Shown here: positions 644 through 36,267 of the stretch, piece by piece
How positions within the stretch are numbered: position 1 is the stretch's first letter
Layout: every line of letters begins with the position of its first letter
UHGV virus genome: UHGV-0179687
DNA from: a virus
Length of the DNA: 36,267 nucleotides
Reading direction: 5' to 3' (one strand)
Notes under the pieces: model-generated
What the model saw: the letters and a program-made list of their open reading frames with translations, nothing else
Database searches by the model: none
Told to the model about the DNA's origin: nothing
Made by a program: the position numbers and the translations under genes

Positions 644-1890
644 TTATTCTCCTTCCACGATCCGCAGCGGTTCTTCTTCGCCGAGCAAAGTCTGCCGTCT
701 GGCGGCATCAACATAGTTTCCCCACCACTGCATGAGCGGTCGCCTTTGTTCCAGGTAATCGCTGCGGTTGTAGGCTGCTTCGATCTCGTCTTCTTTCTGG
801 TGTGCCAGCGCAGATTCCAGTACTTCACGGGGGAAATGACCTGCCCCCGCCGTTCTGGCGATGCTGCGCATGCTGTGGGCGACCAGTTTACCACCGAACC
901 CCATACGGATAAGCGCGGCGTTCGCGGTCTGCTGGTGCATATGCTCCAGGGGGTTGCGGATGCTGGGGAAAACCCACGGGCGATGGCGGCTGACGGGTTC
1001 CATAACCTGAGAAACGCGCAGCGCTTGTTTGCTAAGCGGCACCGTGTGTGAGCGGTTCATCTTCATAAAGGTATCGGGTATGCGCCATTCCGCTTTTTCA
1101 TATCGATATCGCACCAGCGAGCGCTGACGGCTTCGCCGGGACGTACCCAGGTCAGTAGCTCCCATTCAATCAGACAGCGGGTTTCCTTGCGGATAGAGGC
1201 GTTCTGTAGTGCCAGCATTAGCCTGCCCAGTTCACTGGGGTGAAGGGCGGGCATGTTCTGCTTTTTCGGTTTCTTGAAGCGGGCGACTAGGTTGTCAGCC
1301 GGATTGAACTCGATGAGCTCTTCAGAGATGGCGAAGCGGAAGATTTCATTGAGCCGTGAGATAACCCGGCGCAGCGTTTCGAGGATGCCCTGTTCTTCCA
1401 GCGGTGTGAGGTGTTCCTTGAGCATTTTCGGGCGGATCTCGGTGACGGGCGTATTGCCCAGAGAAGGGAAGACGTGCATCTCCAGCGAACGCCAGACATC
1501 TTTGGCGTGATCTTCGCTAAGGTCGCTGGTCCGTTTCTTCTCTTTGAGCCACTGTTCCGCAACTTTTTCCAGCGTACATTCATTCTGGAGTCGTTGCTCC
1601 TCTGCAACCTGCTCCAGATGGGCCTGCGGGTCGATACCCTGCACGAGTAAACGCCGGTATTGCAACCTGAAATCTCGCGCCATGGCGAGGGTGACAACCG
1701 GGTAGGGGCCAATGCTGATTTTGGTCCGTTTTTTCAGCGCCGGGGGAGTGTATTCGAAGTACCAGATCTTTCTGCCGGATGGCTTAATCAACAACGCCAG
1801 CCCGTCGCCATCGCGCAGCATATACTCAGTCTTCTGCGGTTTGGCGGCAGCGATCTCGGTATTGGTTAGTGATTTCAATACCTTAGGCAT
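644..1890 (-). pseudogene. P4/CP4-57-type tyrosine integrase, disrupted by a 1-nt frameshift
   Basis: Two adjacent minus-strand ORFs (1063..1890 and 644..1165) in different frames. The first carries the N-terminal domain (LTNTEIAAAKPQK...DGDGLALLIKPSGRKIWYFEY). The second carries the catalytic domain (HSMRSIA and AAYNRSDYLEQRRPLMQWW, the His-x-x-Arg and catalytic Tyr region). The frames meet at a T5 run at 1094..1098 (A5 on the coding strand). Confidence 0.8.
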
Positions 1891-2216: not shown

Positions 2217-3437
2217 TTATAGTGTGGGGTTATCTATCTTTTTATATTCAAATAGCATATCAATACTTCTTTCGAGTTTGTAAAAATCAGTTAAGGGGTA
2301 TAGTTTTACAATGTCCTCTTCGAAGTTTTTAATTCCAGACAGTTTTTCTTGACTTTGAAGATATCTCTTTGACATCATCAATTCTATTGAATTTTCTGTT
2401 ATTGATGAATGATCTAATGTTTTTAAGACCTGCCACGAAATAGGTGGCGTAAAGTCGAATAATGTGGAGAGTTTAGGGCAAAAATTTTGTTTTACCGTTT
2501 GTTCATATGTAACTTTGGGTGGAAATACAACATTTATTGAGCGGTTACTTAATCGTGAATTAGGCATTTTTGTAGAGAAGTAAGCTACACCGACAATTTT
2601 CGAGTAAGTTTTTCTACTAATCCATTGCATCAACAAATTAGGGATAATGTACTCTTGTATGAATGTTGCAGAACGATGATTTTTTAAATAATTACATGCA
2701 ATAATTAAAGGCCAGAAAATGAGATAAGAGGCCTTTACTCTATTTGTTTCGGCTAGTTTATTTTCGTCAGCGTAATCTGGTGAGGGATGTAACAAAAGCT
2801 GTGATGCAAAGTTTAAGACTTTATATTCAGTTTCACTGGTAGTAAATGATGAAATAAAAAGCTTGTCAAAATCTGGTTTTTCCATCTCCTGCCAACAAAC
2901 ATAAACCGAAGTGCCAAGATATAAACATGGTAAGCCAGCGACTGAATATCTTTGTGCACTAACAAAATGTCTATTGGAGAATGGAATATGGAAAATTTCA
3001 TCTCTTGACGTTAGAGGATTTTCACTTTTTCTAACTCGAAATAATGGTTTTTTATGATTGCAAATGCTACTGAGTGGAGTAGTGATGCGATGTATGTGTT
3101 GGATTGTTGAGTTATCAGAGAATGTTTTATCAAAGTGGTCATATGCTGACTTGATATCACCTGATAAAAAACTTTCAAGTGATAATGTTATTCCATTTTG
3201 AATGTTCTTAACTTTGCTGATTAATTCATCAAAATTCGGCATCCCATCTTTATTGTTGCTTTTGTATTTAATTATTGTTTTTAGATACTTATCGCAACGT
3301 TCAGTGAAGTCACTTATTATATCTCTATGTACTATAAGTGGAGGGTTTAATTTTGGTTCGGAAATGACTTGTTTTAATAATGAGTTTAAATGGTTCTCAA
3401 ATAACTTTTCTTTATTGACTTTGTTTTTAATATCCAT
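2217..3437 (-). CDS. hypothetical AT-rich cargo protein, 406 aa, with a possible RES-like motif
   Basis: Long minus-strand ORF starting 10 nt after the int stop. Hand-counted G+C about 27-30 % against about 55 % in the structural genes. Segment PFSNRHFVSAQRYSVAGLPCLYLGTSVYVCWQEM resembles the Arg / LY-L / Glu pattern of RES domains; this is weak and from memory. Confidence 0.6.
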   Translation of the reverse strand: MDIKNKVNKEKLFENHLNSLLKQVISEPKLNPPLIVHRDIISDFTERCDKYLKTIIKYKSNNKDGMPNFDELISKVKNIQNGITLSLESFLSGDIKSAYDHFDKTFSDNSTIQHIHRITTPLSSICNHKKPLFRVRKSENPLTSRDEIFHIPFSNRHFVSAQRYSVAGLPCLYLGTSVYVCWQEMEKPDFDKLFISSFTTSETEYKVLNFASQLLLHPSPDYADENKLAETNRVKASYLIFWPLIIACNYLKNHRSATFIQEYIIPNLLMQWISRKTYSKIVGVAYFSTKMPNSRLSNRSINVVFPPKVTYEQTVKQNFCPKLSTLFDFTPPISWQVLKTLDHSSITENSIELMMSKRYLQSQEKLSGIKNFEEDIVKLYPLTDFYKLERSIDMLFEYKKIDNPTL

Positions 3438-3447
3438 TTTGATAAGC

Positions 3448-4467
3448 TCAAATAGTTAACATATGTAAAGGGTTTTTGGTAACGGCATCTTCAAGATGGT
3501 CTGGGGAAAAATGAGAATAAACCATTGTCATTTTTATATCTGTATGACCGAGAATCTCTTTAAGAACAAGTATGTTTCCTCCGTTCATCATAAAATGGCT
3601 GGCAAATGTATGACGTAATACATGGGTGCATTGACCCTCTGGAAGCTCAATACCGGCCCGCTTTACTGCACGCTCAAAGGCTTTTCTGCAGGGCGAGAAT
3701 AACTTCCCTCGGTTTTTAGGAAGTTCGTTGTACAGCTCCTGAGATATCGGCACGGTACGGTTTTTCTTGCCCTTCGTCTTGGTATAAGTGATGCGGTATT
3801 TGGATAACTGATGGCCCTGCAGTTTTTCGGCTTCACTCCACCGTGCGCCGGTAGCTAAGCATATTTTGGTAATCATTAGTAGGCTCGGGCTTTGAGATTC
3901 AGCACATGCAGCCAACAGGCGTTTGATTTCCTCCGTGGAAAGAAAGGCTAGTTCACCTTCAGCAATTTTAAATGTTGGAAGCCCGGCAAGAGGGTTGGGG
4001 GCTGACCAGTGGCCCAGCTTTTTCAGTGTACCAAAAACCGATGATAGGTTGCGTTGTTCAAGGTTTACCGTGCGGGGCTTAACGGGCGACATCAGCGTGC
4101 CATCTTCATTTCGCACTTCACCTTTTAGCCGTGCTTCGCGGTATTTCGTAAAGTCACCGGCAGTCAGCTCTGAAGCGATGGGATCGCCCAGACCATTACA
4201 GATAATTCCAAGTTTCGCCATGAGTCGCTTGGGGTCTGCGAGTGTCTGACCATACAGGGAATACCACAGCTCAATTAATTCTGATAGGCGTCGCCGATCA
4301 TCCTTTTCACCCAACCACGGTTTTTTATTCACTTCTTCCATTGTGAAGCTTTCAAACGCAATGGCTTCGCCTTTCGTGGCAAATTGCTTACGCACGCGCT
4401 TGCCATTGCGTCCATTGGGATAGCACTCACACAACCATTTTCCGTTCGGCTGTTTTCTGATGGTCAT
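3448..4467 (-). CDS. int: P2-type tyrosine integrase
   Basis: 339 aa. N-terminal RNGKRVRKQF, then TGARWSEA, HVLRHTFASHFMMNGG and LGHTDIKMTMVYSHF (Arg, His-x-x-Arg, catalytic Tyr), typical of P2 Int. Confidence 0.9.
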   Translation of the reverse strand: MTIRKQPNGKWLCECYPNGRNGKRVRKQFATKGEAIAFESFTMEEVNKKPWLGEKDDRRRLSELIELWYSLYGQTLADPKRLMAKLGIICNGLGDPIASELTAGDFTKYREARLKGEVRNEDGTLMSPVKPRTVNLEQRNLSSVFGTLKKLGHWSAPNPLAGLPTFKIAEGELAFLSTEEIKRLLAACAESQSPSLLMITKICLATGARWSEAEKLQGHQLSKYRITYTKTKGKKNRTVPISQELYNELPKNRGKLFSPCRKAFERAVKRAGIELPEGQCTHVLRHTFASHFMMNGGNILVLKEILGHTDIKMTMVYSHFSPDHLEDAVTKNPLHMLTI

Positions 4468-6819: not shown

Positions 6820-7046
6820 TGGCTGATGCAATGGATCTCGTACAGCAGCGCGTTGAAGAAGAACGCCAGCGCCACATCCGTGCTGCCCGTGCCAAAACAC
6901 CGGGCATGTCTCGCGTGCTTTGCATTGAGTGTGAAGCGCCAATTCCGCCAGCACGCCGCCGCGCCATTCCGGGAGTGCAGCTTTGCATTACCTGTCAGGA
7001 AATCGCAGAGCTGAAAGGTAAACATTACAACGGAGGTGCTGTATGA
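6819..7046 (+). CDS. TraR/DksA-family C4 zinc-finger protein
   Basis: 75 aa with CIECEAPIP...CITCQ, two Cys-x-x-Cys pairs spaced as in TraR/DksA. Common in P2-like early operons. Confidence 0.75.
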   Translation: MADAMDLVQQRVEEERQRHIRAARAKTPGMSRVLCIECEAPIPPARRRAIPGVQLCITCQEIAELKGKHYNGGAV

Positions 7047-7900
7047 GCACCATCCTGAAATGGGCGGGTAATAAAACCGCCATTATGTCCGAACTGAAAA
7101 AACACCTTCCTGCTGGCCCGCGACTGGTTGAACCTTTCGCGGGTTCTTGTGCTGTGATGATGGAGACGGATTACCCCAGCTATTTGGTTGCGGATATTAA
7201 TCCTGATTTAATCAACCTCTATAAAAAGGTTGCCGCTGATTGTGAATCGTTTATATTTCGCGCCAGAGTTTTATTTGAGATCGCAAACAGGGAGGTGGCT
7301 TATTACAACATAAGGCAGGAGTTTAATTACTCCACTGAAATTACTGATTTCATGAAAGCGGTATATTTCCTGTATCTCAATCGTCACGGTTACCGTGGTT
7401 TATGTCGCTATAACAAGAGCGGGCATTTCAACATTCCCTACGGTAATTATAAAAATCCGTATTTCCCTGAAAAAGAACTTCGCACATTTGCAGAAAAAGC
7501 CCAGCGAGCAACGTTTGTCTGCGCCAGCTTTGATGAAACGCTGGCGATGTTGAAGGCGGGGGATGTGGTGTATTGCGATCCGCCGTATGACGGTACGTTT
7601 TCCGGCTATCACACTGATGGTTTCACTGAAGATGACCAGTATCACCTGGCATCCGTTCTTGAACATCGGTCATCAGAAGGACATCCGGTCATTGTTTCTA
7701 ACAGTGACACATCCCTGATCCGTTCGCTGTATCGCAATTTTACTCACCACTACATCAAGGCAAAACGCAGCATCGGCGTAGCAGCTGGTGAGAGTAAATC
7801 TGCAACAGAAATCATTGCTGTTTCCGGGCCGCGCTGCTGGGTGGGATTTGATCCTTCGCGTGGCGTGGATAGTTCTGCCGTGTACGGAGTGCGTGCATGA
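7043..7900 (+). CDS. dam: DNA adenine methyltransferase (Dam-like)
   Basis: 285 aa with the DPPY catalytic motif (VYCDPPYDG) and the N-terminal PFAGSCAV AdoMet-binding-like segment. Confidence 0.85.
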
Positions 7901-10311
7901 GCCATGCTGATATGAACAATTGCAGCGGCTTTAACGAGGCCGCCGCAGCATTCTCATGGAACAGCCCGAAAAAGGCTATTAACCCTTATCTGGACCCGGC
8001 GGAAGTTGCGCCGGTTTCTGCGCTTTCAAACCTGATCACTCTGTACGCTGCCGATAACGAGCAGGAACAACTGCGCCGCGAGGCACTGAGTGATCAGGTC
8101 TGGGAGCGTTATTTCTTTAATGCATCCCGTGATCCTGTCCAACGCGAAATGGAGCAGGATAAGCTCATTAGCCGGGCAAAGCTGGCGCATGAGCAGCAGC
8201 GTTTTAATCCGGACATGATCATACTGGCGGACGTTAACGCCCAGCCTTCCCATATCAGCAAGCCGCTGATGCAACGTATTGAATACTTCAGCAGCCTGGG
8301 CAGGCCAAAGGCTTATTCCCGCTATTTGCGTGAGACGATTAAGCCATGTCTGGAACGACTGGAGCATGTACGCGACAGTCAGCTATCCACTTCTTTTCGC
8401 TTTATGGCAAGCCATGAAGGGCTGGACGGCCTGCTGATCTTGCCTGAATTGAGTCAGGATCAGGTGAAACGCCTGTCTACTCTTGTCGCTGCGCATATGA
8501 GTATGTGTCTTGATGCCGCTTGTGGTGATTTGTACGCCACCGATGATGTTAAGCCAGAAGAAATCCGCAAGACATGGGAAAAGGTGGCAGCAGAAACCCT
8601 GCGACTGGATGTCATACCGCCTGCGTTTGAGCAACTCCGCCGGAAAAGAAACCGCCGTAAACCCGTGCCCTATGAACTCATTCCGGGTTCGCTGGCGCGT
8701 ATGTTGTGCGCCGATTGGTGGTACCGTAAATTATGGAAGATGCGTTGCGAATGGCGGGAAGAGCAGTTGCGTGCTGTTTGTCTGGTCAGCAAAAAAGCAT
8801 CTCCCTATGTCAGCTATGAAGCCGTGATGCATAAACGTGAGCAGCGCCGTAAGTCGCTGGAGTTTTTCCGTTCTCATGAACTGGTGAACGAAGACGGCGA
8901 CACGCTGGACATGGAGGATGTGGTAAACGCCAGCAGCACCAACCCTGCACATCGCCGCAATGAGATGATGGCCTGTGTTAAAGGTCTGGAGCTTATCGCG
9001 GAAATGCGCGGTGACTGCGCCGTTTTTTACACCATCACCTGTCCGTCACGTTTCCATTCCACGCTAAATAACGGCAGGCCCAACCCGACCTGGACAAACG
9101 CGACGGTAAGACAAAGCAGTAATTATCTGGTCGGCATGTTTGCTGCATTTCGTAAGGCGATGCACAAAGCCGGGTTGCGCTGGTATGGCGTGCGGGTGGC
9201 TGAGCCGCATCATGACGGCACAGTTCACTGGCACCTGTTGTGTTTCATGCGCAAAAAAGACCGCCGCGCCATTACTGCATTGTTGCGTAAGTTTGCTATC
9301 CGTGAAGACCGCGAGGAGCTGGGTAATAACACGGGGCCACGCTTTAAGTCTGAGCTGATAAACCCGTGCAAAGGAACGCCGACTAGCTACATCGCGAAAT
9401 ACATCAGTAAGAACATTGACGGGCGTGGTCTGGCTGGCGAGATCAGCAAGGAAACGGGTAAATCTCTGCGTGATAACGCTGAATACGTTAATGCCTGGGC
9501 GTCTCTGCATCGTGTTCAGCAATTCCGCTTCTTTGGCATTCCGGGACGTCAGGCTTACCGTGAACTGCGATTGCTGGCTGGTCAGGTGGCAAGGCAACAG
9601 GGTGACAAAAAAGCAGGTGCGCCGGTACTGGATAACCCGCGCCTTGATGCCATTCTGGCTGCAGCTGATGCTGGTTGTTTTGCCACCTACATCATGAAGC
9701 AGGGCGGCGTACTGGTTCCCCGTAAATATCACCTCATCAGAACCGCTTATGAAATCAACGAAGAGCCGACCGCCTATGGCGATCACGGCATTCGTATTTA
9801 TGGCATCTGGTCACCCATTGCAGAGGGCAAAATCTGCACTCATGCAGTGAAGTGGAAAATGGTTCGTAAGGCCGTTGACGTTCAGGAGGCGGCAGCCGAC
9901 CAGGGCGCTTGCGCCCCTTGGACTCGTGGCAATAACTGTCCCCTTGCTGAAAATTTGAACCAACAAGGGAAAGACAAATCAGCTGATGGGGATACCAGAA
10001 CGGAGATCACCCGCATGGATGACAAGGAGTTGCACGATTACCTGCACAGTATGAGCAAAAAAGAGCGCCGGGAACTGGCAGCAAGGTTACGCCTGGTGAA
10101 ACCGAAATGGCGTAAAGACTACAAACAGCGAATTACAGAGCATCAGCGTCAGCAGCTCGTCTATGAACTGAAGTCCAGAGGATTTGATGGCAGCGAGAAA
10201 GAGGTCGATCTGCTCCTTCGCGGTGGCAGTATTCCGTCAGGAGCAGGCCTGCGTATCTTCTATCGGAACCAGCGTTTGCAGGAAGATGATAAGTGGCGGA
10301 ACCTGTATTAA
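7897..10311 (+). CDS. A: replication initiation endonuclease (P2 gpA-like)
   Basis: 804 aa. His-hydrophobic-His motif (TVHWHLLCF) and a downstream YIAKYISK tyrosine segment typical of rolling-circle initiators. Sits where P2 gene A does. Confidence 0.9.
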
Positions 10312-11183: not shown

Positions 11184-11402
11184 ATGTCAAGTATCGCCGC
11201 ATTGAAGCTGGGTAATCCAGTTGAACGTTTGGCACGGGTTCTGAAAGAGAACCAGGACAAGCTCAATCTGAGTAAAGATGGTTTTGTGTCCGTAGATTTG
11301 TCCAACGAAGAAGCTATGAAAGCCATCCGAGATCAGATGGATAAGCTTGAAGGCATCAAAACGAGCACTGTTAAAGCAAAATATTATTACAGAACCCGAT
11401 AA
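11184..11402 (+). CDS. small soluble hypothetical protein (first gene of accessory pair)
   Basis: 72 aa, strong RBS aaggaggg. Stop overlaps the next start (TAATG). Confidence 0.6.
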   Translation: MSSIAALKLGNPVERLARVLKENQDKLNLSKDGFVSVDLSNEEAMKAIRDQMDKLEGIKTSTVKAKYYYRTR

Positions 11403-12244
11403 TGGCAACATTACTTTTAGCAGTGATTTTGGTTAGTGGTTTTATATATGTAAACCTATCACTTTCAACACGTTATAGATATAAGCGTTCCAATGGCTGG
11501 GACGCTTATTTTTTTGTGGCTGCATGGGGAATTGTCTTTTTCCTCGCTGGCGGCTTCCTTACCTTCGCTCTTAACATCAGCGGTGGGTTTCGCTGGTTTT
11601 CTAATGCGCTGAATCTGACTCCAGACAGCTTTAACGGGATGTTATCCACCACAACCGATAAACCGCAGCGCATCAATGAAATTAAGCAAATCGCGTGGGT
11701 TGTGATTTCAATAGTTCTCGCGGCGCTGTTCGGTTGGCTAAACAAACGCCGTACTTCAAAGGGGGATCGCCGTTGGGATGCACTGGCAAAGGCAGTGGGA
11801 AACAATGCTTTTGAATCGCTGCTCATGGAAGCATCAGCTCGCCAGTTTCCTATCATTGCTACACTTTCATCACGCAAAATCTATGTAGGGCTGGTGACTT
11901 GCCCTGCGTTGGAAAATGGATTGTCGGAACACCTTGAAATTCTCCCCTTGCTGAGCGGATATCGTGATAAAGACGACCTAACGATAAATATCACGACAAA
12001 CTATCATCAGCACTATCTTGATAGCGGTGTTATCAATGGGATGTCGCGCCTGAATATCCAGGATTTCCGTGTGCTTCTCCCTAAAGATGAAGTTGAAACC
12101 ATCTCGTTTTTTGATACTGAAACGTATAACAAATTTAAAGAAAACGAAGCGCGTGACCGGAAAGACTGCCGCAAGTTGGGTGGTAAAAAGCCATCCGCAC
12201 GCAGGAGAAAGACTGCTGGCGACGCAGAGCAGGGTAGTGCATGA
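11402..12244 (+). CDS. membrane protein with three N-terminal hydrophobic helices and a C-terminal soluble domain
   Basis: 280 aa. Hydrophobic segments LLLAVILVSGFIYVNLSL, YFFVAAWGIVFFLAGGFLTFAL and IAWVVISIVLAALFGWL, then about 170 soluble residues and a basic tail. Confidence 0.65.
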   Translation: MATLLLAVILVSGFIYVNLSLSTRYRYKRSNGWDAYFFVAAWGIVFFLAGGFLTFALNISGGFRWFSNALNLTPDSFNGMLSTTTDKPQRINEIKQIAWVVISIVLAALFGWLNKRRTSKGDRRWDALAKAVGNNAFESLLMEASARQFPIIATLSSRKIYVGLVTCPALENGLSEHLEILPLLSGYRDKDDLTINITTNYHQHYLDSGVINGMSRLNIQDFRVLLPKDEVETISFFDTETYNKFKENEARDRKDCRKLGGKKPSARRRKTAGDAEQGSA

Positions 12245-12289
12245 CTATGCTGCATGAATTTGCATGATCGTTTGAGGATCGTTTTAGCT

Positions 12290-12318
12290 CCGGCCCGCCA
12301 GTTCAGGCGGGCTTTTTC
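12290..12318 (+). terminator. rho-independent terminator after the membrane-protein gene
   Basis: GC stem cggcccgcc / ggcgggc with loop agttca, followed by TTTTT. Confidence 0.7.
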
Positions 12319-12459
12319 ATATCTCATGCAGGTGCATGAAAACCACTACACAAAGCGGGCAGGCGTGGCGGGGATACGAGCGCGCGCAACAGGTAAACCC
12401 CTAGACTTGTTAAAATATTTGTCATATAAATCAAACATCAAACCTAAGGGAGGCAGAGG

Positions 12460-13893
12460 ATGATCCAGCCAAAAGTTTTTATATCCTATAGTTGGTCAAG
12501 TAAAACTCATCAGCAACATATCAAAGATATGGCTGAACGATTGGCGGCAGATGGAGTTGAAACTGTCATAGATATTTATGACTTGAAAGAAGGGGATGAT
12601 AAAAATTATTACATGGAAAGAATGGTTCAAGATGAAACGGTTACGCATGTTTTAGTCATTTGTGATAAAAAATACTCAGAAAAAGCCGATTTAAGAAAAG
12701 ATGGTGTCGGTGTTGAGTCGATGATAATTTCCCAGGAAATATATTCATCCGTGTCGCAGTCCAAATTTATACCATTAATATTTGAGTACAAAGATAATGG
12801 AGAGCCGTATACTCCAATCTTTCTGAAGTCTAGAATCTATATTGATTTTTCAACGCCAGAAAAAGAAAATGATAATTGGGAGCGTTTAATCAGGTTGCTT
12901 TATGGAAAACCAGAATTTACTAAGCCACCATTAGGTAAGCCTCCGGTTTATTTAGAGCAAGACACGTCAAAACCGACGTATGAAATTCATGCAAAATTTC
13001 AAACTTTAAAATCAGCTGTCTTAAATCAAAAGCAGACATTAAAGGATTGCAGAAGGCAATTTTTAGAGGTGTGCCGAAATTATTGTATCTCACTACAAGT
13101 CGTAACAAACCCAACTACTGAAGATTTTGCAGCGGAAGTTTTGCAAATTCATAAAGAGCTTATTGCCGTTAGGGATGCCATTACAGACTGGGTTTTACTT
13201 GAGGGTGATACGCAGGGCGAAGACTTTTCCAAAGCACTATTACAGTTTATGGAAGTAATGTTAGCGATTAGAAATCGTCCGAAAAATGTAAATTCATATA
13301 ATGAAATATGGTTTTTGCCCCATCAGATTTTTGCGTATGAAACGTTTTTATATATTTTGGCGGCTTTAATAAAAATTGAAGCTTTCCAGCATGTACATAC
13401 ATTACTGCATACATCTTATTTGCTACCCGATCATATAACCAGTCCGGGAATGGAGTTTGCTAATTACAGTGAGTTATATTTAAGCTCTGATTACCTTCAA
13501 AGTAAATTGTCCCCTGAAAACTATCGACTGTATTCCCCTGTTGCTGAGTTAGTAAAGCAAAGTGCAACTAGAGATGATGTGTCTTTCGATGATTTGAAAC
13601 AAGCTGATCTTGTTGCTCTTATGATATCCTTCATTAATCCCGGTATTTTTTGGTACCCGCAAATGTTGTTGTATTCCGGGCACTATGAGAAATATCCTCT
13701 ATTTACAAGAGCAATACAGCATAGAGGATTCAAGAGTATTGCAGTTATTACCGGAATCGATGACAGTAAACTTTTGGCTCAAAAGCTGACAGAGGGTGAG
13801 GCCCAGCGAAATACTAATAACTGGTATCATTTCGGTTTTAATAGAGACTTTCTCAATAAAATGAATGTTAGTCGTCTAGATAGTATTGAATGA
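12460..13893 (+). CDS. TIR-like domain protein with an unrecognised C-terminal domain
   Basis: 477 aa. N-terminus KVFISYSWSS...VLVICDKKYSEK...GVGVESMI fits a TIR/TIR-like fold signature (FISYS strand, later acidic residue). RBS aagggagg. Hand-counted G+C about 27-35 %. Confidence 0.7.
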   Translation: MIQPKVFISYSWSSKTHQQHIKDMAERLAADGVETVIDIYDLKEGDDKNYYMERMVQDETVTHVLVICDKKYSEKADLRKDGVGVESMIISQEIYSSVSQSKFIPLIFEYKDNGEPYTPIFLKSRIYIDFSTPEKENDNWERLIRLLYGKPEFTKPPLGKPPVYLEQDTSKPTYEIHAKFQTLKSAVLNQKQTLKDCRRQFLEVCRNYCISLQVVTNPTTEDFAAEVLQIHKELIAVRDAITDWVLLEGDTQGEDFSKALLQFMEVMLAIRNRPKNVNSYNEIWFLPHQIFAYETFLYILAALIKIEAFQHVHTLLHTSYLLPDHITSPGMEFANYSELYLSSDYLQSKLSPENYRLYSPVAELVKQSATRDDVSFDDLKQADLVALMISFINPGIFWYPQMLLYSGHYEKYPLFTRAIQHRGFKSIAVITGIDDSKLLAQKLTEGEAQRNTNNWYHFGFNRDFLNKMNVSRLDSIE

Positions 13894-13898
13894 AAATT

Positions 13899-13924
13899 AG
13901 AGGGCGCTTTGCAAAGCGCTCTCT
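13899..13924. terminator. hairpin between the convergent TIR-like gene and Q (possible bidirectional terminator)
   Basis: agagggcgctttgcaaagcgctctct, a near-perfect inverted repeat between the stop at 13893 and the Q stop at 13928. Confidence 0.55.
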
Positions 13925-13927
13925 GTA

Positions 13928-14968
13928 TTAGTTTTCAATATCTAAGGTGTAGGGCTCAAAGCGGATCACTTCTTCGCCCAGCCAGTCGTTAAGCTCCTGC
14001 AGTCGCTTCTGCAGCGGCATCAGCTCGTTGCGGACAAAGACGCGGCTGGCCTTTTCCACATCACCAAAGCCGCCGGTATTGTTGGGAATGATGCCCATCA
14101 TCTGCGGCGGCACGCGGTGAGCAGCCATCATGTCATCACGGCTCACGTTCTTGATGTTCAGAAATTCATCCTTTGCCGCAACTTCCGACAACGGGATTAT
14201 CTGGATGCCGTCCTTTTTACCGTTGGGCGAATACATAAACAGGTTGCGGAAGTTGCCCGGCCCTTTGGCGCTTTTCATTGCCTGGCGGATATTGTTCACG
14301 TCCTCCTGATTCTGTGCTGCGTCGGTCATGTACATGATGAAACCCGCGTGGCTGCCGTTGATGTAATACTTCCGGCGAAACAGCGTTGCTGACTCGTTGA
14401 GCAGGGTTGACGGGATGGCGGAGAGATAGCCGGGCAGCCCGTAAATCTCCTGATTAATATCCGGTTCCAGCAGATGAAAGATGTTGCCCTGCGTAAATTC
14501 ATAGGGCTGCGTGGTCATGCCATACTGCACAAACCAGTAGGTGTCGAGATCCACGCCGCGCCGTGTGTACTTCGCCAGTGCTGGCTCCAGCGAGAGAACG
14601 CTGCCGAGCCGGTTGGTGCGCTTTTCCAGATAGGCGTTACCGAACACCAGATAATCCTGGACGAAACGGGCAAAAGCCTGCTGGCTGAGCAGGCGGTGCG
14701 GGATATAGGTACTGCTGAGAATGTCACGCTTAACGGCAATCGGTGAGCTGTGATGCACGGCGGCGCGATAGGTCCGCGCCAGTCCGTCAAAGCTCACCGG
14801 CGGTTCATACCAGCGATCCATCTGCACGCATTCCACGTAGTCCAGCAATTCGCGTCGGTCTAACACCGGCACCGGGTCGCCAAAGCTGAACGCCTCTGCC
14901 GCAGCACCGCCTGAATTTGCGTTGTGATCTACTGCTGCGCGGTTATTCTTGTTTTTACGTTTGCTCAT
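13928..14968 (-). CDS. Q: portal protein (P2 gpQ-like)
   Basis: 346 aa, upstream partner of the terminase as in P2. Conserved FSFGDPVPVLDRRELLDYVECV segment near the N-terminus. Confidence 0.9.
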   Translation of the reverse strand: MSKRKNKNNRAAVDHNANSGGAAAEAFSFGDPVPVLDRRELLDYVECVQMDRWYEPPVSFDGLARTYRAAVHHSSPIAVKRDILSSTYIPHRLLSQQAFARFVQDYLVFGNAYLEKRTNRLGSVLSLEPALAKYTRRGVDLDTYWFVQYGMTTQPYEFTQGNIFHLLEPDINQEIYGLPGYLSAIPSTLLNESATLFRRKYYINGSHAGFIMYMTDAAQNQEDVNNIRQAMKSAKGPGNFRNLFMYSPNGKKDGIQIIPLSEVAAKDEFLNIKNVSRDDMMAAHRVPPQMMGIIPNNTGGFGDVEKASRVFVRNELMPLQKRLQELNDWLGEEVIRFEPYTLDIEN

Positions 14969-15693
14969 GCCGCCTGCTCCTTGTCAGTCTGGGGCCATTC
15001 GCACATAAACAGCATTTTCCAGTCCTCTGCTGATAACTCTTTTTTCATGTCATTAAGCCATTCATCATCAAAGAGCGCGGCTCCGGTTGCGAGCGTTGCC
15101 CCGGATGCTGCAGCGTCATCAGCGGTAAAAATCATGCTGGTTGTGCTGTTGCGGGCAATCAGCTTCTTGTATTCCCGCCATGCTTCCGGGCTGGGGCTTG
15201 GGGTGGTGTAGTAGGTAGCGTGATAGCGCGCGTGCATGGACAGGCTTTTGGCGAGCGCAATCATATTTTTCGGGGAGTCCGCCCAGGCATACTCTGACAC
15301 ATAGACGTTTCCATGGAGCGCGGCGGCGAGACTTTTCGGCCCGATAAAATAAATGACCGCACCGTTAGGTAGTTCCAGATGCGCTTTACCTGATTTTATT
15401 TTCCCAAGGTGTGTCCAGGTTGCGGCCTGATCTATAAAGGCTGACATATAGGTTTTGACTGTCAGGGCAGATGCTGTGCTGCAGCAGAGGAAAATCTGGT
15501 TACGCCCGGTATGCAGTGCATCGTTCAGGGCTTCATAGGAAAAAAAGAAATCCGCGCCTGCCTGGCGCATTTTTGTGAGTACACGGTTTCTACTCTTTGG
15601 GCTAGTGTTCCACTCATACTGGTAAGCAAAGAAAGAGCTATCCACCGGAAGTCCCGCGATAGTCATGAGGTTAGTTGGGATTGGGGGCATCAA
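14965..15693 (-). CDS. terminase large-subunit ATPase-domain paralog (no nuclease domain)
   Basis: 242 aa aligning by eye to the middle of the adjacent P protein: LHTGRNQIFL vs LLTGRNQIFL, ELPNGAVIYFIG vs VLPNGATLYFLG, LHGNVYVSEYAW vs YHGNLYLDEYFW, LFMCEW vs LLMCEF. Its start overlaps the P stop and its stop overlaps the Q start. Confidence 0.75.
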   Translation of the reverse strand: MMPPIPTNLMTIAGLPVDSSFFAYQYEWNTSPKSRNRVLTKMRQAGADFFFSYEALNDALHTGRNQIFLCCSTASALTVKTYMSAFIDQAATWTHLGKIKSGKAHLELPNGAVIYFIGPKSLAAALHGNVYVSEYAWADSPKNMIALAKSLSMHARYHATYYTTPSPSPEAWREYKKLIARNSTTSMIFTADDAAASGATLATGAALFDDEWLNDMKKELSAEDWKMLFMCEWPQTDKEQAA

Positions 15694-17456
15694 AAAATCT
15701 CCACAATATTGCTGGTATTGGCGGATTCGCCCTGCAGCGGTTCGTTAAACAGTGCGTGCATTGTTGCCCAGGCCAGATCGGCATGGCTGGCTTCTTCGCT
15801 GCGGCTGGCTTCATAGGTTAGGCGGTTGCCGCTGGCGGTGGTGGCGCGACGGATTGCCATAAAGGACTGCGCAATGTCGGTGTGCCCGGCGTCAAACTCC
15901 AGACGGCGGTGGCTGATAATGTCGTAGGCCTTGAGTACCAGGGCGTTTTTAACGTTGGGGTTGTAGACAAACTCCCGGACGGCAGGAAAGAACGCTTTCA
16001 CGTTCTCGTAAACCCCGTGACCAACGCCGGTTGAGTCGATGCCGATGTAGGTCACGTTGTACTGCTCGGTCAGTTTTTTGATTGCGTCCGCCTGGGCACG
16101 GAAGTCCATCCCGCGCCACTGGTGACGCTCAAGAATGCGAAACTTACCGCCTGGCACGGCTGGCGGTGCCACCACCACGCATCCGGCGCTGTCGCCGTTC
16201 TGCGTACCTTTTGCCGGGTCATAACCGATCCACACTTCGCGCCAGCCAAATGGGCGCAGGGCCAGAGCATGAAAGTCGGTCCAGACTTCCCAACTGTCCA
16301 CCATGCACGCCTGCAGCTCGCTGAGCGGGAACACGGACGCGAGATCGTCCACAAACTCGCACATCAGCAGGTTCTGGTATTCGTCCGGGCTGTACTCCAT
16401 GCGCAACTGGTCAAGGTCGAACAGGTTACAGCCGCCGCGCACCGCATCTTCCACGGTGACTATCTGGCGGTATTGCCCGTCTGCGCACAGCAGGCCGGGG
16501 GCCAGATTGCTGTGGGACAGGTCGATGTCCACCTTGTCGGCCTTGTTGCGCCCACGGTTGAACAGCGCACCGGACCAGAACGGATAAGCACTGTGTGTCA
16601 GGCTGGATGGCGTGGAAAAATAGGTTTGTCGCCATTTTTTGTGAATAGCCATACCGGAAGCCACTTTGCGCAGCTCCTGGAATTTCGGTATCCAGAAATA
16701 TTCATCCAGATACAGGTTGCCGTGATAACTCTGGGCCGTGCGGGCATTGGTGCCGAGGAAGTAAAGCGTGGCCCCGTTAGGAAGCACCATCGGATCGCCT
16801 TTCAACTCCACCTCCACTTCTTTGGCGAAGTCGATGATGTACTGCTTAAAGACGTGGGCCTGTGCCTTGCTGGCGGAAAGGAAAATCTGGTTACGTCCGG
16901 TAAGCAGGGCGTCAATCAGGGCTTCACGGGCAAAGTAAAAGGTCGCGCCGATCTGGCGTGACTTCAGCAGGTTCCGGATGCGGTTGGTTTTTCCGGCTTC
17001 CCACCAGTGGCGCTGGTAGTTGAACATGGAGGAATGGAAGATTTCTTCCAGCTTCTCAATCTGCTCATCGGTGAAAACATTCTTTTCCGGCTGACGGCGC
17101 GGGCCTTTGTTACGGTTGGCGACGTTAGGGTTTAAATCGGCTTCGTTGCCGCCATTGTTAAACTTGCCGATCCGCGCGTGGCGTTCCGACTGGCGCGCCA
17201 GCAGGTCAATCTCTTTGAAATCTTTCCCTTCTTTGTGCTCCTTCATGATGAGCTGGCAGTAGCGTGCGGCGGTGGTGAGCTGCATCTGGTCCAGCGGCCC
17301 ATAGTCACCCCACTTGTCGCGTTTTTTCCAGCTGTGAACGGTTGCAACTTTCTCGCCCAGCATTTCAGCAATGCGGGCTACGCGGTATCCCTGAAAGTAC
17401 AGCAGCATGGCCTGCCGACGGGGATCGAGATCTGCGGGTGTCAGTGTGGTGTTCAT
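15690..17456 (-). CDS. P: terminase large subunit (P2 gpP-like)
   Basis: 588 aa, full-length ATPase plus nuclease, at the canonical position divergent from O. Confidence 0.9.
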   Translation of the reverse strand: MNTTLTPADLDPRRQAMLLYFQGYRVARIAEMLGEKVATVHSWKKRDKWGDYGPLDQMQLTTAARYCQLIMKEHKEGKDFKEIDLLARQSERHARIGKFNNGGNEADLNPNVANRNKGPRRQPEKNVFTDEQIEKLEEIFHSSMFNYQRHWWEAGKTNRIRNLLKSRQIGATFYFAREALIDALLTGRNQIFLSASKAQAHVFKQYIIDFAKEVEVELKGDPMVLPNGATLYFLGTNARTAQSYHGNLYLDEYFWIPKFQELRKVASGMAIHKKWRQTYFSTPSSLTHSAYPFWSGALFNRGRNKADKVDIDLSHSNLAPGLLCADGQYRQIVTVEDAVRGGCNLFDLDQLRMEYSPDEYQNLLMCEFVDDLASVFPLSELQACMVDSWEVWTDFHALALRPFGWREVWIGYDPAKGTQNGDSAGCVVVAPPAVPGGKFRILERHQWRGMDFRAQADAIKKLTEQYNVTYIGIDSTGVGHGVYENVKAFFPAVREFVYNPNVKNALVLKAYDIISHRRLEFDAGHTDIAQSFMAIRRATTASGNRLTYEASRSEEASHADLAWATMHALFNEPLQGESANTSNIVEIF

Positions 17457-17502: not shown

Positions 17503-17520
17503 TGTGTGGTTGTCGGTACA
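17503..17520. promoter_or_regulatory. TGT-N12-ACA dyad (Ogr-type late promoter element) between P and O
   Basis: TGTgtggttgtcggtACA in the 142-nt divergent P/O intergenic region. Dyad centre is about 55 nt from the P start and about 88 nt from the O start. Confidence 0.6.
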
Positions 17521-35351: not shown

Positions 35352-35525
35352 ATGGATACAAACGAACTTGGCTTAGTTAAGGCGCGTGTTGAACTGATCA
35401 CCGCTATGCTCAAATGCGCAACCGCGTTTGTTGGCTTAGTTGGTGCGGTTTACGCCGTTCTTAACATGGCCTTCAACTACAACAATTTAACTCATGACAA
35501 TAGAAGTTCAAAGGTGGGAAGATAA
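35352..35525 (+). CDS. small hydrophobic protein upstream of the reverse transcriptase
   Basis: 57 aa from the ATG at 35352, with ggagg 8 nt upstream. One long hydrophobic segment (ATAFVGLVGAVYAVLNMAF). Its 3' end overlaps the RT start by 32 nt. Coding status is uncertain. Confidence 0.4.
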   Translation: MDTNELGLVKARVELITAMLKCATAFVGLVGAVYAVLNMAFNYNNLTHDNRSSKVGR

Positions 35526-36267
35526 ATTTGAGATTAAGCCCGGGGTTTGGGTTTATGTCCCAAGCGTTGAGGCACGTAAAGTCGGAGGGAAGATACTTCA
35601 GGCTGTCAGAAACAAGTGGATTCCGCCACTCTATTTTTACCATCTAAGAACTGGTGGGCATCTTAAAGCTGCCAGATTACACTTAAAAAGTGATTTTTTT
35701 GCCGTTGTTGATATTAAACAATTTTTTCAGTCAACGAGCCGTAGTCGTATCACCCGTGATCTAAAGAGCTACTTCACCTATTCTCAAGCGCGGGAAATCT
35801 CAACATTTTCAACTGTAAGAAACTTGTCCCATAGTCCACATAAGCATGTCCTCCCTTTTGGTTTTGTTCAATCTCCAATACTTGCAACCCTCTGCTTAGA
35901 TAAAAGTTATTTTGGTAGCTTACTACGCCGATTGAACAAACATCATGATCTCAAGCTAAGTGTGTTTATGGATGATGTGATCATCTCGTCAAACGATTTG
36001 GCCCAATTACAAGCGGCTTACGACGAAGCACTAGTGGCAATGCGTAAATCTGGTTATCAAGCCAACATGAGTAAAACTCAGGCACCATCGTCAAAGATTA
36101 GCGTGTTTAATTTAACTTTGAGTAAGGGAGTTATGAAAGTCACATCTCAGAAAATGAGTGACTTCCTGATTGATTTCTATTCAAGCAATTATGAGCCGCA
36201 CAGAATAGGGGTCAAAAACTACGTCGAAGCTGTTAATCCAGGGCAAGCGAAACTCTTTAAGTTGTAA
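35494..36267 (+). CDS. compact reverse transcriptase
   Basis: 257 aa with RT motifs in order: FFAVVDIKQFFQST (motif A Asp), LPFGFVQSPILATLCL (motif B'), LSVFMDDVIISS (motif C, x-M-D-D), ...MSKTQ (motif D). Hand-counted G+C about 40 %. Confidence 0.75.
   Translation: MTIEVQRWEDKFEIKPGVWVYVPSVEARKVGGKILQAVRNKWIPPLYFYHLRTGGHLKAARLHLKSDFFAVVDIKQFFQSTSRSRITRDLKSYFTYSQAREISTFSTVRNLSHSPHKHVLPFGFVQSPILATLCLDKSYFGSLLRRLNKHHDLKLSVFMDDVIISSNDLAQLQAAYDEALVAMRKSGYQANMSKTQAPSSKISVFNLTLSKGVMKVTSQKMSDFLIDFYSSNYEPHRIGVKNYVEAVNPGQAKLFKL

Follow-up and report, generated by a model that had tools for sequence, protein, structure and literature searches.

The virus genome UHGV-0179687, analysed here as one stretch of 36,267 nucleotides (nt) that we call the window, is of the P2/186 prophage type. 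Between the gene for the large terminase subunit (P; TerL) and the portal gene (Q) lies an additional open reading frame (ORF), named X in this study, which encodes a paralog of TerL restricted to the ATPase domain. The genes and junctions of this operon are as follows, with protein lengths in amino acids (aa).

15690..17456, minus strand: P, TerL, 588 aa, first gene of the operon and parent-type gene of the paralog; Pfam matches to Terminase_5 (N-terminal helix-turn-helix, HTH), Terminase_6N (ATPase) and Terminase_6C (nuclease)
15688..15692, minus strand: TGATG junction, in which the stop codon of P and the start codon of X have 1 base in common
14965..15690, minus strand: X, TerL ATPase domain only, 241 aa from the ATG at 15690 (given by the ORF lister as 14965..15693, 242 aa from the TTG at 15693)
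14965..14968, minus strand: ATGA junction, in which the stop codon of X and the start codon of Q overlap by 4 nt
13928..14968, minus strand: Q, portal, 346 aa, last gene of the operon
13904..13919, minus strand: terminator-like hairpin directly 3' of Q at the end of the P-X-Q operon, at the place where phage 186 has tW; Q and the bSEFIR gene described below have a bidirectional hairpin in common (13898..13925)

Because the sequence at the end of P reads gag att ttt TGA tg ccc, the ATG at 15690 is the likely start of X. Shine-Dalgarno-like motifs of the GGAG type are found 8-9 nt upstream of the starts of both X and Q. The ATGA overlap of the paralog stop with the portal start is kept in 186, YenM_201.16, phiO18P, L004, E. 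coli A38 and E. coli ET650, and L003 has an 8-nt overlap instead. A first-pass annotation of the window had read the overlapping stop and start codons on both sides of X as probable co-translation in the P-Q operon, and the two junctions bear this out. The minus strand of the P-X interval was scanned for an internal X promoter and no promoter-like site was found; the single promoter-like site within P is at chance level. Upstream of the operon, in the divergent intergenic region of P and O, a TGT-N12-ACA element (17503..17520, strand unassigned) resembles the annotated B-protein site of 186 and is a possible late-activator (Ogr/B) site, in a window where this pattern occurs nine times, about the chance level. 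The anatomy of the locus shows X to be placed in the late operon and, by its junctions, coupled in translation to both P and Q.

We considered, and rejected, a fusion of P and X by -1 frameshifting on the run of T residues ahead of the stop codon of P (ATTTTTTGATG). The T-run is not conserved (attttcTGAtg in phage MLG42, tttaatTAAtg in 186), and the frame relation of the two genes varies among homologues, with 1-nt and 4-nt overlaps.

Comparison of X with P revealed 33% identity between residues 19-233 of X and residues 142-368 of P (BLASTP, E 3e-32). The only Pfam match of X is Terminase_6N (E 1.7e-14, 54 bits against a cut-off of 22), so that pairwise and profile alignment both give significant similarity to terminase. 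The AlphaFold2 model of X, built on 26 homologues, has a pLDDT of 79.8 and a pTM of 0.80, and its best Foldseek matches are the ATPase domains of TerL proteins, with T4 gp17 at the top (E 1.7e-8), followed by D6E and P74-26, the three falling within E 1e-8 to 1e-7. These results agree with the first-pass description of X as a diverged paralog of the TerL ATPase domain without the nuclease, and the alignment confirms its estimate that P extends beyond X by about 140 residues at the N-terminal end and about 220 at the C-terminal end. Terminase_6C, the RNase H-like nuclease, was not matched in X by Pfam, and the protein stops about 9 residues past the end of the ATPase domain. Likewise, Pfam gave no match to Terminase_5, the N-terminal HTH, and X begins about 20 residues ahead of the Q-motif. 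Counted exactly, 23 residues precede the Q-motif Gln and 9 follow the MCEW motif in X, in comparison to 25 and 11 in the W protein of coliphage 186. When the sequences of solved structures were searched, P and the family profile both gave spurious matches only; the mapping of motifs in X therefore rests on the Pfam match, the fold match and the secondary structure of the model. No second copy of the paralog was found in the window. The protein family phrog_3746 was examined as a marker specific to the paralogs and discarded, since P is matched along with X, 186 W and the phiO18P paralog, and the family gives no separation. X had no match among the curated defence models of PADLOC and none in NCBIfam, and its reading as a known defence or anti-defence protein was rejected.

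The closest named system is the late operon of coliphage 186. Its record contains a "W protein; similar to Orf12" (AAC34147 / NP_052250, 248 aa; U32222 1215..1961) between Orf12, the homologue of P, and Orf2, the homologue of Q. Like X, 186 W consists of the ATPase domain only, with equal boundaries, and is joined to its neighbours by 1-nt and 4-nt overlaps; the two proteins are 32% identical (BLASTP, E 4e-34). Unlike those of X, both Walker motifs of 186 W are canonical (KSRQIGAT in A, VYLDE in B), and 186 W retains a hairpin insert of about 25 residues that X has lost. The paralog of Yersinia phage YenM_201.16 is intermediate, with 45% identity to 186 W and 38% to X. The GenBank qualifier gene=W of 186 spans both the paralog and the portal coding sequences, and the classical W mutations may lie in either. 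We take 186 gene W to be known from conditional-lethal head mutants; even if this is correct, the amber mutations could act by polarity through the ATGA junction onto the portal gene.

The first-pass annotation had considered X unusual because the terminase and portal genes of P2 are adjacent. The adjacency is real, as a tblastn search of P2 gives a single TerL-like place. The conclusion did not stand, since an equivalent arrangement is annotated in 186, PSP3, SW9, EtG, Yersinia phages, phiO18P and E. coli (by PGAP); a feature of the 186 branch had seemed unusual because it was compared with P2, which has none. The same annotation had named, as an outcome that would speak against it, that X might be a standard conserved gene of the lineage with a known different function. 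That outcome applies in part: the gene is indeed recognised and conserved, and a function for 186 W or for truncated terminases was not found in the literature searched, the coverage of which does not include the original study of the 186 late region. X is thus a divergent member of an already annotated gene type without a characterised function.

A survey of related prophages placed the gene at the same position across 186-branch phages and several genera. Among phage records, Yersinia phage vB_YpM_MLG42, a plaque-forming isolate (PMC11126057), carries an X homologue with 89% aa identity that is annotated as hypothetical, and Escherichia phage 500465-1 carries one that is frameshifted in that record. 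Two TerL-like places in a 186-like arrangement were detected in PSP3, SW9, SI22, EtG, Midge and two Yersinia enterocolitica phages, and the E. coli copies bear the PGAP label "terminase large subunit domain-containing protein". Prophages of Limnobaculum and Buttiauxella and three metagenomic contigs (L019, L023 and L024) keep the P-X-Q position, with homologues down to 34% identity. A word-indexed search gave 52 clusters of 225-254 aa proteins in Enterobacterales, again down to 34% identity. A profile search of 1.84 billion representatives gave 538 matches; among the best 150 of these, about 40 stand-alone clusters (at 50% identity) aligned end to end, and the rest were full-length TerL proteins of about 570-620 aa.

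Phylogenetic analysis was based on neighbour-joining trees with bootstrap, in which the branches are long. The closest relatives of the window X form a clade with a bootstrap of 99.8%, and a wider clade that joins the window class with 186 W and P0061 reaches 54% only. 186 W was never grouped with its own P. The paralog of Aeromonas phage phiO18P (phiO18_21, "truncated terminase ATPase subunit", 257 aa; L014 5347..6120) resembles X in its position between terL and the portal gene, its 4-nt overlaps and its restriction to the ATPase domain. In contrast to X, it shares 65% identity with its own TerL, with which it grouped (68% bootstrap), which indicates a separate and younger duplication; its Walker A is KAHQIGMS, with His in place of Arg, and the DE of its Walker B is canonical. 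One further paralog is 59% identical to a Kappa-type TerL. Since the phiO18P-type and Kappa-type paralogs side with TerL, apart from the 186 W group, ATPase-only paralogs have arisen more than once. Taken with its homology and fold, X is almost certainly a functional accessory gene of the coliphage 186 W kind and an old partial copy of TerL of which only the ATPase domain is present; it may go back to one duplication together with 186 W.

Multiple-sequence comparison identified the ATPase motifs of X listed here, with invariance scored among 26 family members.

15619..15624, minus strand: Q-motif Y23-Q24 (adenine-binding, upstream of Walker A), aligned with FNYQ of P; Q24 invariant, Y23 in at least 90% of members
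15550..15573, minus strand: Walker A-like P-loop K40-M-R-Q-A-G-A-D47; K40, R42, Q43, G45, A46 and D47 invariant
15292..15306, minus strand: Walker B V129-Y-V-S132-E133, with Ser for the Mg-binding Asp and the catalytic Glu kept; Y130 and E133 invariant
15196..15216, minus strand: region of the C (coupling) motif T159-Y-Y-T-T-P-S165; T159, T162 and S165 invariant

The 32 invariant columns are clustered in the ATPase motifs, and G62-R-N-Q65 is also among them. The secondary structure of the model places a strand at residues 35-40, a loop at 41-45 and a helix at 46-61, and a strand at 128-132 that ends at S132-E133. In comparison to the TerL proteins P2 gpP and 186 Orf12, X has the ATPase core in common, namely the Q-motif, the P-loop Lys and Arg, the catalytic Glu and the C-motif, and the N-terminal HTH and the C-terminal RNase H-like nuclease are found in TerL in addition. 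A GC-rich 6-bp hairpin followed by GATTTCTTTTTTT lies inside X over the Walker A codons (15553..15569, minus strand; MRQAGADFFF) and resembles a terminator. As the scan found 10 terminator-like sites in comparison to 5.3 +/- 2.4 expected, and homologues do not conserve the FFF residues, this hairpin is probably a chance occurrence.

Two of the motifs differ from those of P, with KMRQAGAD for KSRQIGAT in Walker A and VYVSE for LYLDE in Walker B. The Asp that replaces Thr in the P-loop (RQAGAD for RQIGAT), from which the first-pass annotation had suspected an altered Walker A, proved to be invariant in the family as D47. All 62 full-length TerL proteins examined have a Walker A Thr/Ser together with a Walker B Asp-Glu. 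In the subfamily of the window, every member has Asp for the Walker A Thr and one of Ser, Gly, Pro or Ala for the Walker B Asp, with the catalytic Glu, the Lys, the Arg and the Q-motif retained. Among 42 representatives of stand-alone clusters, 16 combine a Walker A Asp with a non-Asp Walker B residue (Ser/Gly/Pro/Ala), 20 are canonical (no Asp in Walker A, Asp in Walker B), six have Asp at neither place (intermediate or degenerate), and none has Asp at both. This covariation is significant by Fisher's test (p = 5e-7, with kinship among the sequences not corrected for). Because a Walker A Asp never co-occurs with a Walker B Asp, the Thr-to-Asp exchange is half of a paired change. Judged from the motifs, this change may have moved the Mg-binding carboxylate from Walker B to Walker A while keeping the nucleotide site in working order, and X most likely still binds ATP.

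The ratio of nonsynonymous to synonymous substitution rates (dN/dS) is 0.19-0.28 for X, in comparison to 0.007-0.058 for P and 0.05-0.08 for Q. X is thus a real coding gene under purifying selection, with a constraint looser than that on the core packaging genes. Between the window and E. coli A38, the synonymous distance is 0.11 for P and 0.43 for X, a discordance which indicates that X is exchanged independently of P. The exchanged cassette takes in the 5' end of Q, because the first 25 or so codons of Q (codons 1-25, 14890..14968, minus strand) track the presence of the paralog: the portal protein begins with MSKRK... where the paralog is present and with MGK... where it is absent, and the rest of Q is conserved (L006, L015 and L007). 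Among complete E. coli genomes, about 1,195 records contain the P type of the window (at least 95% nt identity); 21 genomes have X and 8 have a gene of the 186-W type. Of 488 phage records with a TerL-like match, about 23 have a second place.

Paralogs of the same family also occur outside the late operon. P0097, P0115, P0096 and P0176 are stand-alone TerL-ATPase paralogs of other P2-like prophages, and their genes follow directly downstream of gpA. This place belongs to the early replication operon and lies on the gpA side of the gpA-Q hotspot, a region known for defence cargo (PMC9122126); P0088 probably belongs to the same sister subgroup. In the genomes with a paralog downstream of gpA, P and Q are adjacent. 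These proteins share the fold family and the length of X, and their Walker A Asp or Ser is combined with a Walker B Ser or Pro, as in the class of X or in intermediates. The paralog loci of this sister clade are:

L020, 8001..8750: paralog, with flanking ORFs of about 60-105 aa, mostly hydrophobic by eye
L021, 8001..8738: paralog, with flanking ORFs of about 60-105 aa, mostly hydrophobic by eye
L025, 4001..4696: paralog, with flanking ORFs of about 60-105 aa
L026, 4001..4867: paralog, with flanking ORFs of about 60-105 aa

Based on these observations, we take X to be an old partial copy of TerL that has kept the whole ATPase domain and lost the N-terminal HTH and the C-terminal nuclease. To judge from the anatomy of the operon, X is made in late lytic growth from the P-X-Q message, in translational coupling with TerL and the portal protein. 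Its nucleotide site is maintained in a rewired form (Ser for Asp in Walker B, Asp for Thr in Walker A), with ATP binding most likely retained. Given its domain content, X should be unable to cut DNA and is probably unable to read cos or to bind TerS. It may join or dock on the terminase-portal machinery through the surfaces of the TerL ATPase domain, as a non-cutting modulatory subunit that is presumably not needed for basic packaging and useful under particular conditions only. In favour of this reading we count the homology and fold, the coupling on both sides, the same position and boundaries in relatives, purifying selection, the invariant ATPase motifs and the mutual exclusivity of Asp in Walker A and Asp in Walker B. 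Furthermore, paralogs of ring ATPases often enter mixed assemblies. The mechanism itself, a non-cutting TerL-like subunit that conditionally modulates the terminase-portal machinery, is a tentative proposal at less than even odds. For the explanation as a whole, in which an accessory gene of the 186 W lineage acts as a modulator of the packaging machinery, we estimate a probability of about 0.4.

Several observations weigh against such a role. In Klebsiella phage 4LV2017, P is 99% identical to that of the window at the aa level and X is absent; P is there joined straight to Q by the same TTTTTTGATG junction. The plaque-forming Yersinia phage MHG75 is 98.8% identical to 186 in P and 95.6% in Q and has no W-type gene, the cassette absent from it taking in about the first 25 codons of Q as well, and only about 2% of E. 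coli prophages with the P type of the window carry any paralog. These comparisons show an accessory gene that is, to judge from the genomes, dispensable. X also evolves much faster than its partners, with 37% identity over one genome pair in which P is 80% and Q 67% identical, and its recombination apart from P implies that P is not co-adapted to it. The position of the sister clade in the early operon indicates that coupling to P and Q is not essential for the paralog family. Lastly, of the 72 stand-alone paralogs examined, which comprise the 42 representatives, the other family members and the phage paralogs, six lack the catalytic Glu and seven the Walker Lys, in comparison to none of the 62 TerL proteins, and catalysis is thus not universally required of the stand-alone forms.

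Sporadic presence, fast evolution and independent recombination are also the profile of an accessory gene in an arms race. A first alternative is that X is a counter-defence decoy, which would mimic the TerL ATPase domain seen by Avs1-3/Upx sensors and absorb or blunt them during lytic growth, with the rewired ATP/Mg site blocking productive activation. The repeated birth of such paralogs from TerL, as in the phiO18P paralog with its 65% identity to its own TerL, and the sister clade in the early operon within the gpA-Q defence hotspot fit this idea. Avs2 and Avs3 read the active site of the TerL ATPase and its bound ATP (PMC13601566), and these are the features altered in X. However, the analogues that have been tested act in the opposite direction: isolated TerL ATPase domains and the T4 protein vs.8 activate EcAvs2 (PMC13601566). 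T4 vs.8, which we set beside X by its description, is like X a stand-alone homologue of the ATPase domain of its own terminase, with no assigned function (PMC13601566); unlike X, it belongs to another phage family and context, both its Walker motifs, A and B, are reported to be conserved, and on co-expression it is reported to activate EcAvs2 (PMC13601566). In addition, paralogs with a canonical site, such as 186 W, would not escape recognition, and X has no match in PADLOC. We consider the decoy function unlikely.

In a broader form of this idea, P2-like phages would repeatedly make and exchange ATPase-only terminase copies, in the late P-Q or the early gpA operon, as weapons of conflict. The copies would be TerL mimics that blunt Avs/Upx-type sensors or P4-type hijackers, and the Walker A/B exchange would keep nucleotide binding while escaping recognition. 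We regard this generalisation as doubtful, to much the same degree as the decoy itself.

The first-pass annotation had suggested that X might interfere with rivals or serve as an assembly factor. The dispensability and fast evolution of the gene, the repeated origin of such paralogs, the early-operon sister clade and the paired Walker changes all bear on these roles, and interference with rivals is somewhat less probable still than the decoy. X would then be a dominant-negative subunit that enters or blocks the packaging motors of other P2-like phages resident in the same cell, or those of P4-like satellites, which use the terminase of a helper. A complete ATPase domain without the nuclease and the HTH is how a poison subunit is classically designed, and accessory status and fast evolution count in favour as well. 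P4-like satellites, which rely on the terminase of P2, have been reported from 44% of E. coli isolates (PMC9122126). Nevertheless, X is co-expressed with its own TerL from its own late operon and would meet its own motor first. The P of the window, 99% identical to the P of phages that lack X, shows no sign of a resistant allele, and no promoter-like site points to expression in the prophage state.

That X is a decaying, functionless remnant of a partial tandem duplication of P is very improbable: although the gene is absent from most relatives without visible harm and some stand-alone paralogs elsewhere have degenerate catalytic residues, the frame is intact (also in the plaque-forming MLG42), length and position are constant across genera down to 34% identity, dN/dS is 0.19-0.28, 32 columns are invariant in the ATPase motifs and the fold is modelled with confidence.

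The wider layout of the window is that of a P2/186-type prophage with several stretches of probable or possible cargo.

3448..4467, minus strand: integrase, followed in the layout by a 186-type CI repressor and a Dam-like methylase
7897..10311, plus strand: gpA
after gpA: a low-GC cargo stretch, then Q, X and P (minus strand), then O, N, M, L and the tail genes

A gene for a D12-class N6-adenine DNA methyltransferase (7043..7900, plus strand) lies directly upstream of gpA and overlaps it, a pairing that is repeated in L020, L021, L025 and L026. In the gpA-Q hotspot, where the GC content falls to 0.38-0.41, a 477-aa TIR/SEFIR protein (12460..13893, plus strand) matches the PADLOC bSEFIR model with an E of 1e-102, and its gene is convergent with Q. 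Upstream, a 280-aa ORF (11402..12244, plus strand) has hydrophobic N-terminal segments that resemble membrane spans by eye and no Pfam or PADLOC match; it is followed by a 69-aa ORF (12254..12463, plus strand), the end of which overlaps the start of the bSEFIR gene, and the three may form a single cargo unit. At the far end of the prophage, a reverse-transcriptase ORF (35494..36267, plus strand, continuing past the end of the window; Pfam RVT_1, E 2e-21) of low GC content (0.42) may be cargo of the retron or DRT type. A 406-aa ORF adjoining the integrase (2217..3437, minus strand) has the lowest GC content of the window (0.34-0.38) and no Pfam or PADLOC match, and is probably cargo at the attachment-site end. 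Outside the P2-type integrase, a second tyrosine-integrase ORF (1063..1890, minus strand) is truncated, with Arm-DNA-bind_3, Phage_int_M and the start of the catalytic domain only, and looks like the leftover of another element integrated at the same site.

As far as we found, the conserved Walker A/B exchange, the accessory recombining cassette, the repeated origin of the paralogs and the sister clade in the early operon have not been described. If none of the readings discussed above holds, X is an accessory gene of an ordinary kind that has been annotated before. If Mg-ATP is still bound after the paired Thr-to-Asp and Asp-to-Ser change, this P-loop site would represent an unusual solution found in nature. 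The P2/186-type phages offer a tractable case, with natural phage pairs with and without the gene, a rewiring that is reversible by two point mutations, and a sister clade that is expressed early. In the terminase, the ATPase domain serves as the motor of packaging and is at the same time a main target of innate immunity in bacteria, and stand-alone copies of it occur in at least two phage families, none of them with a known role.

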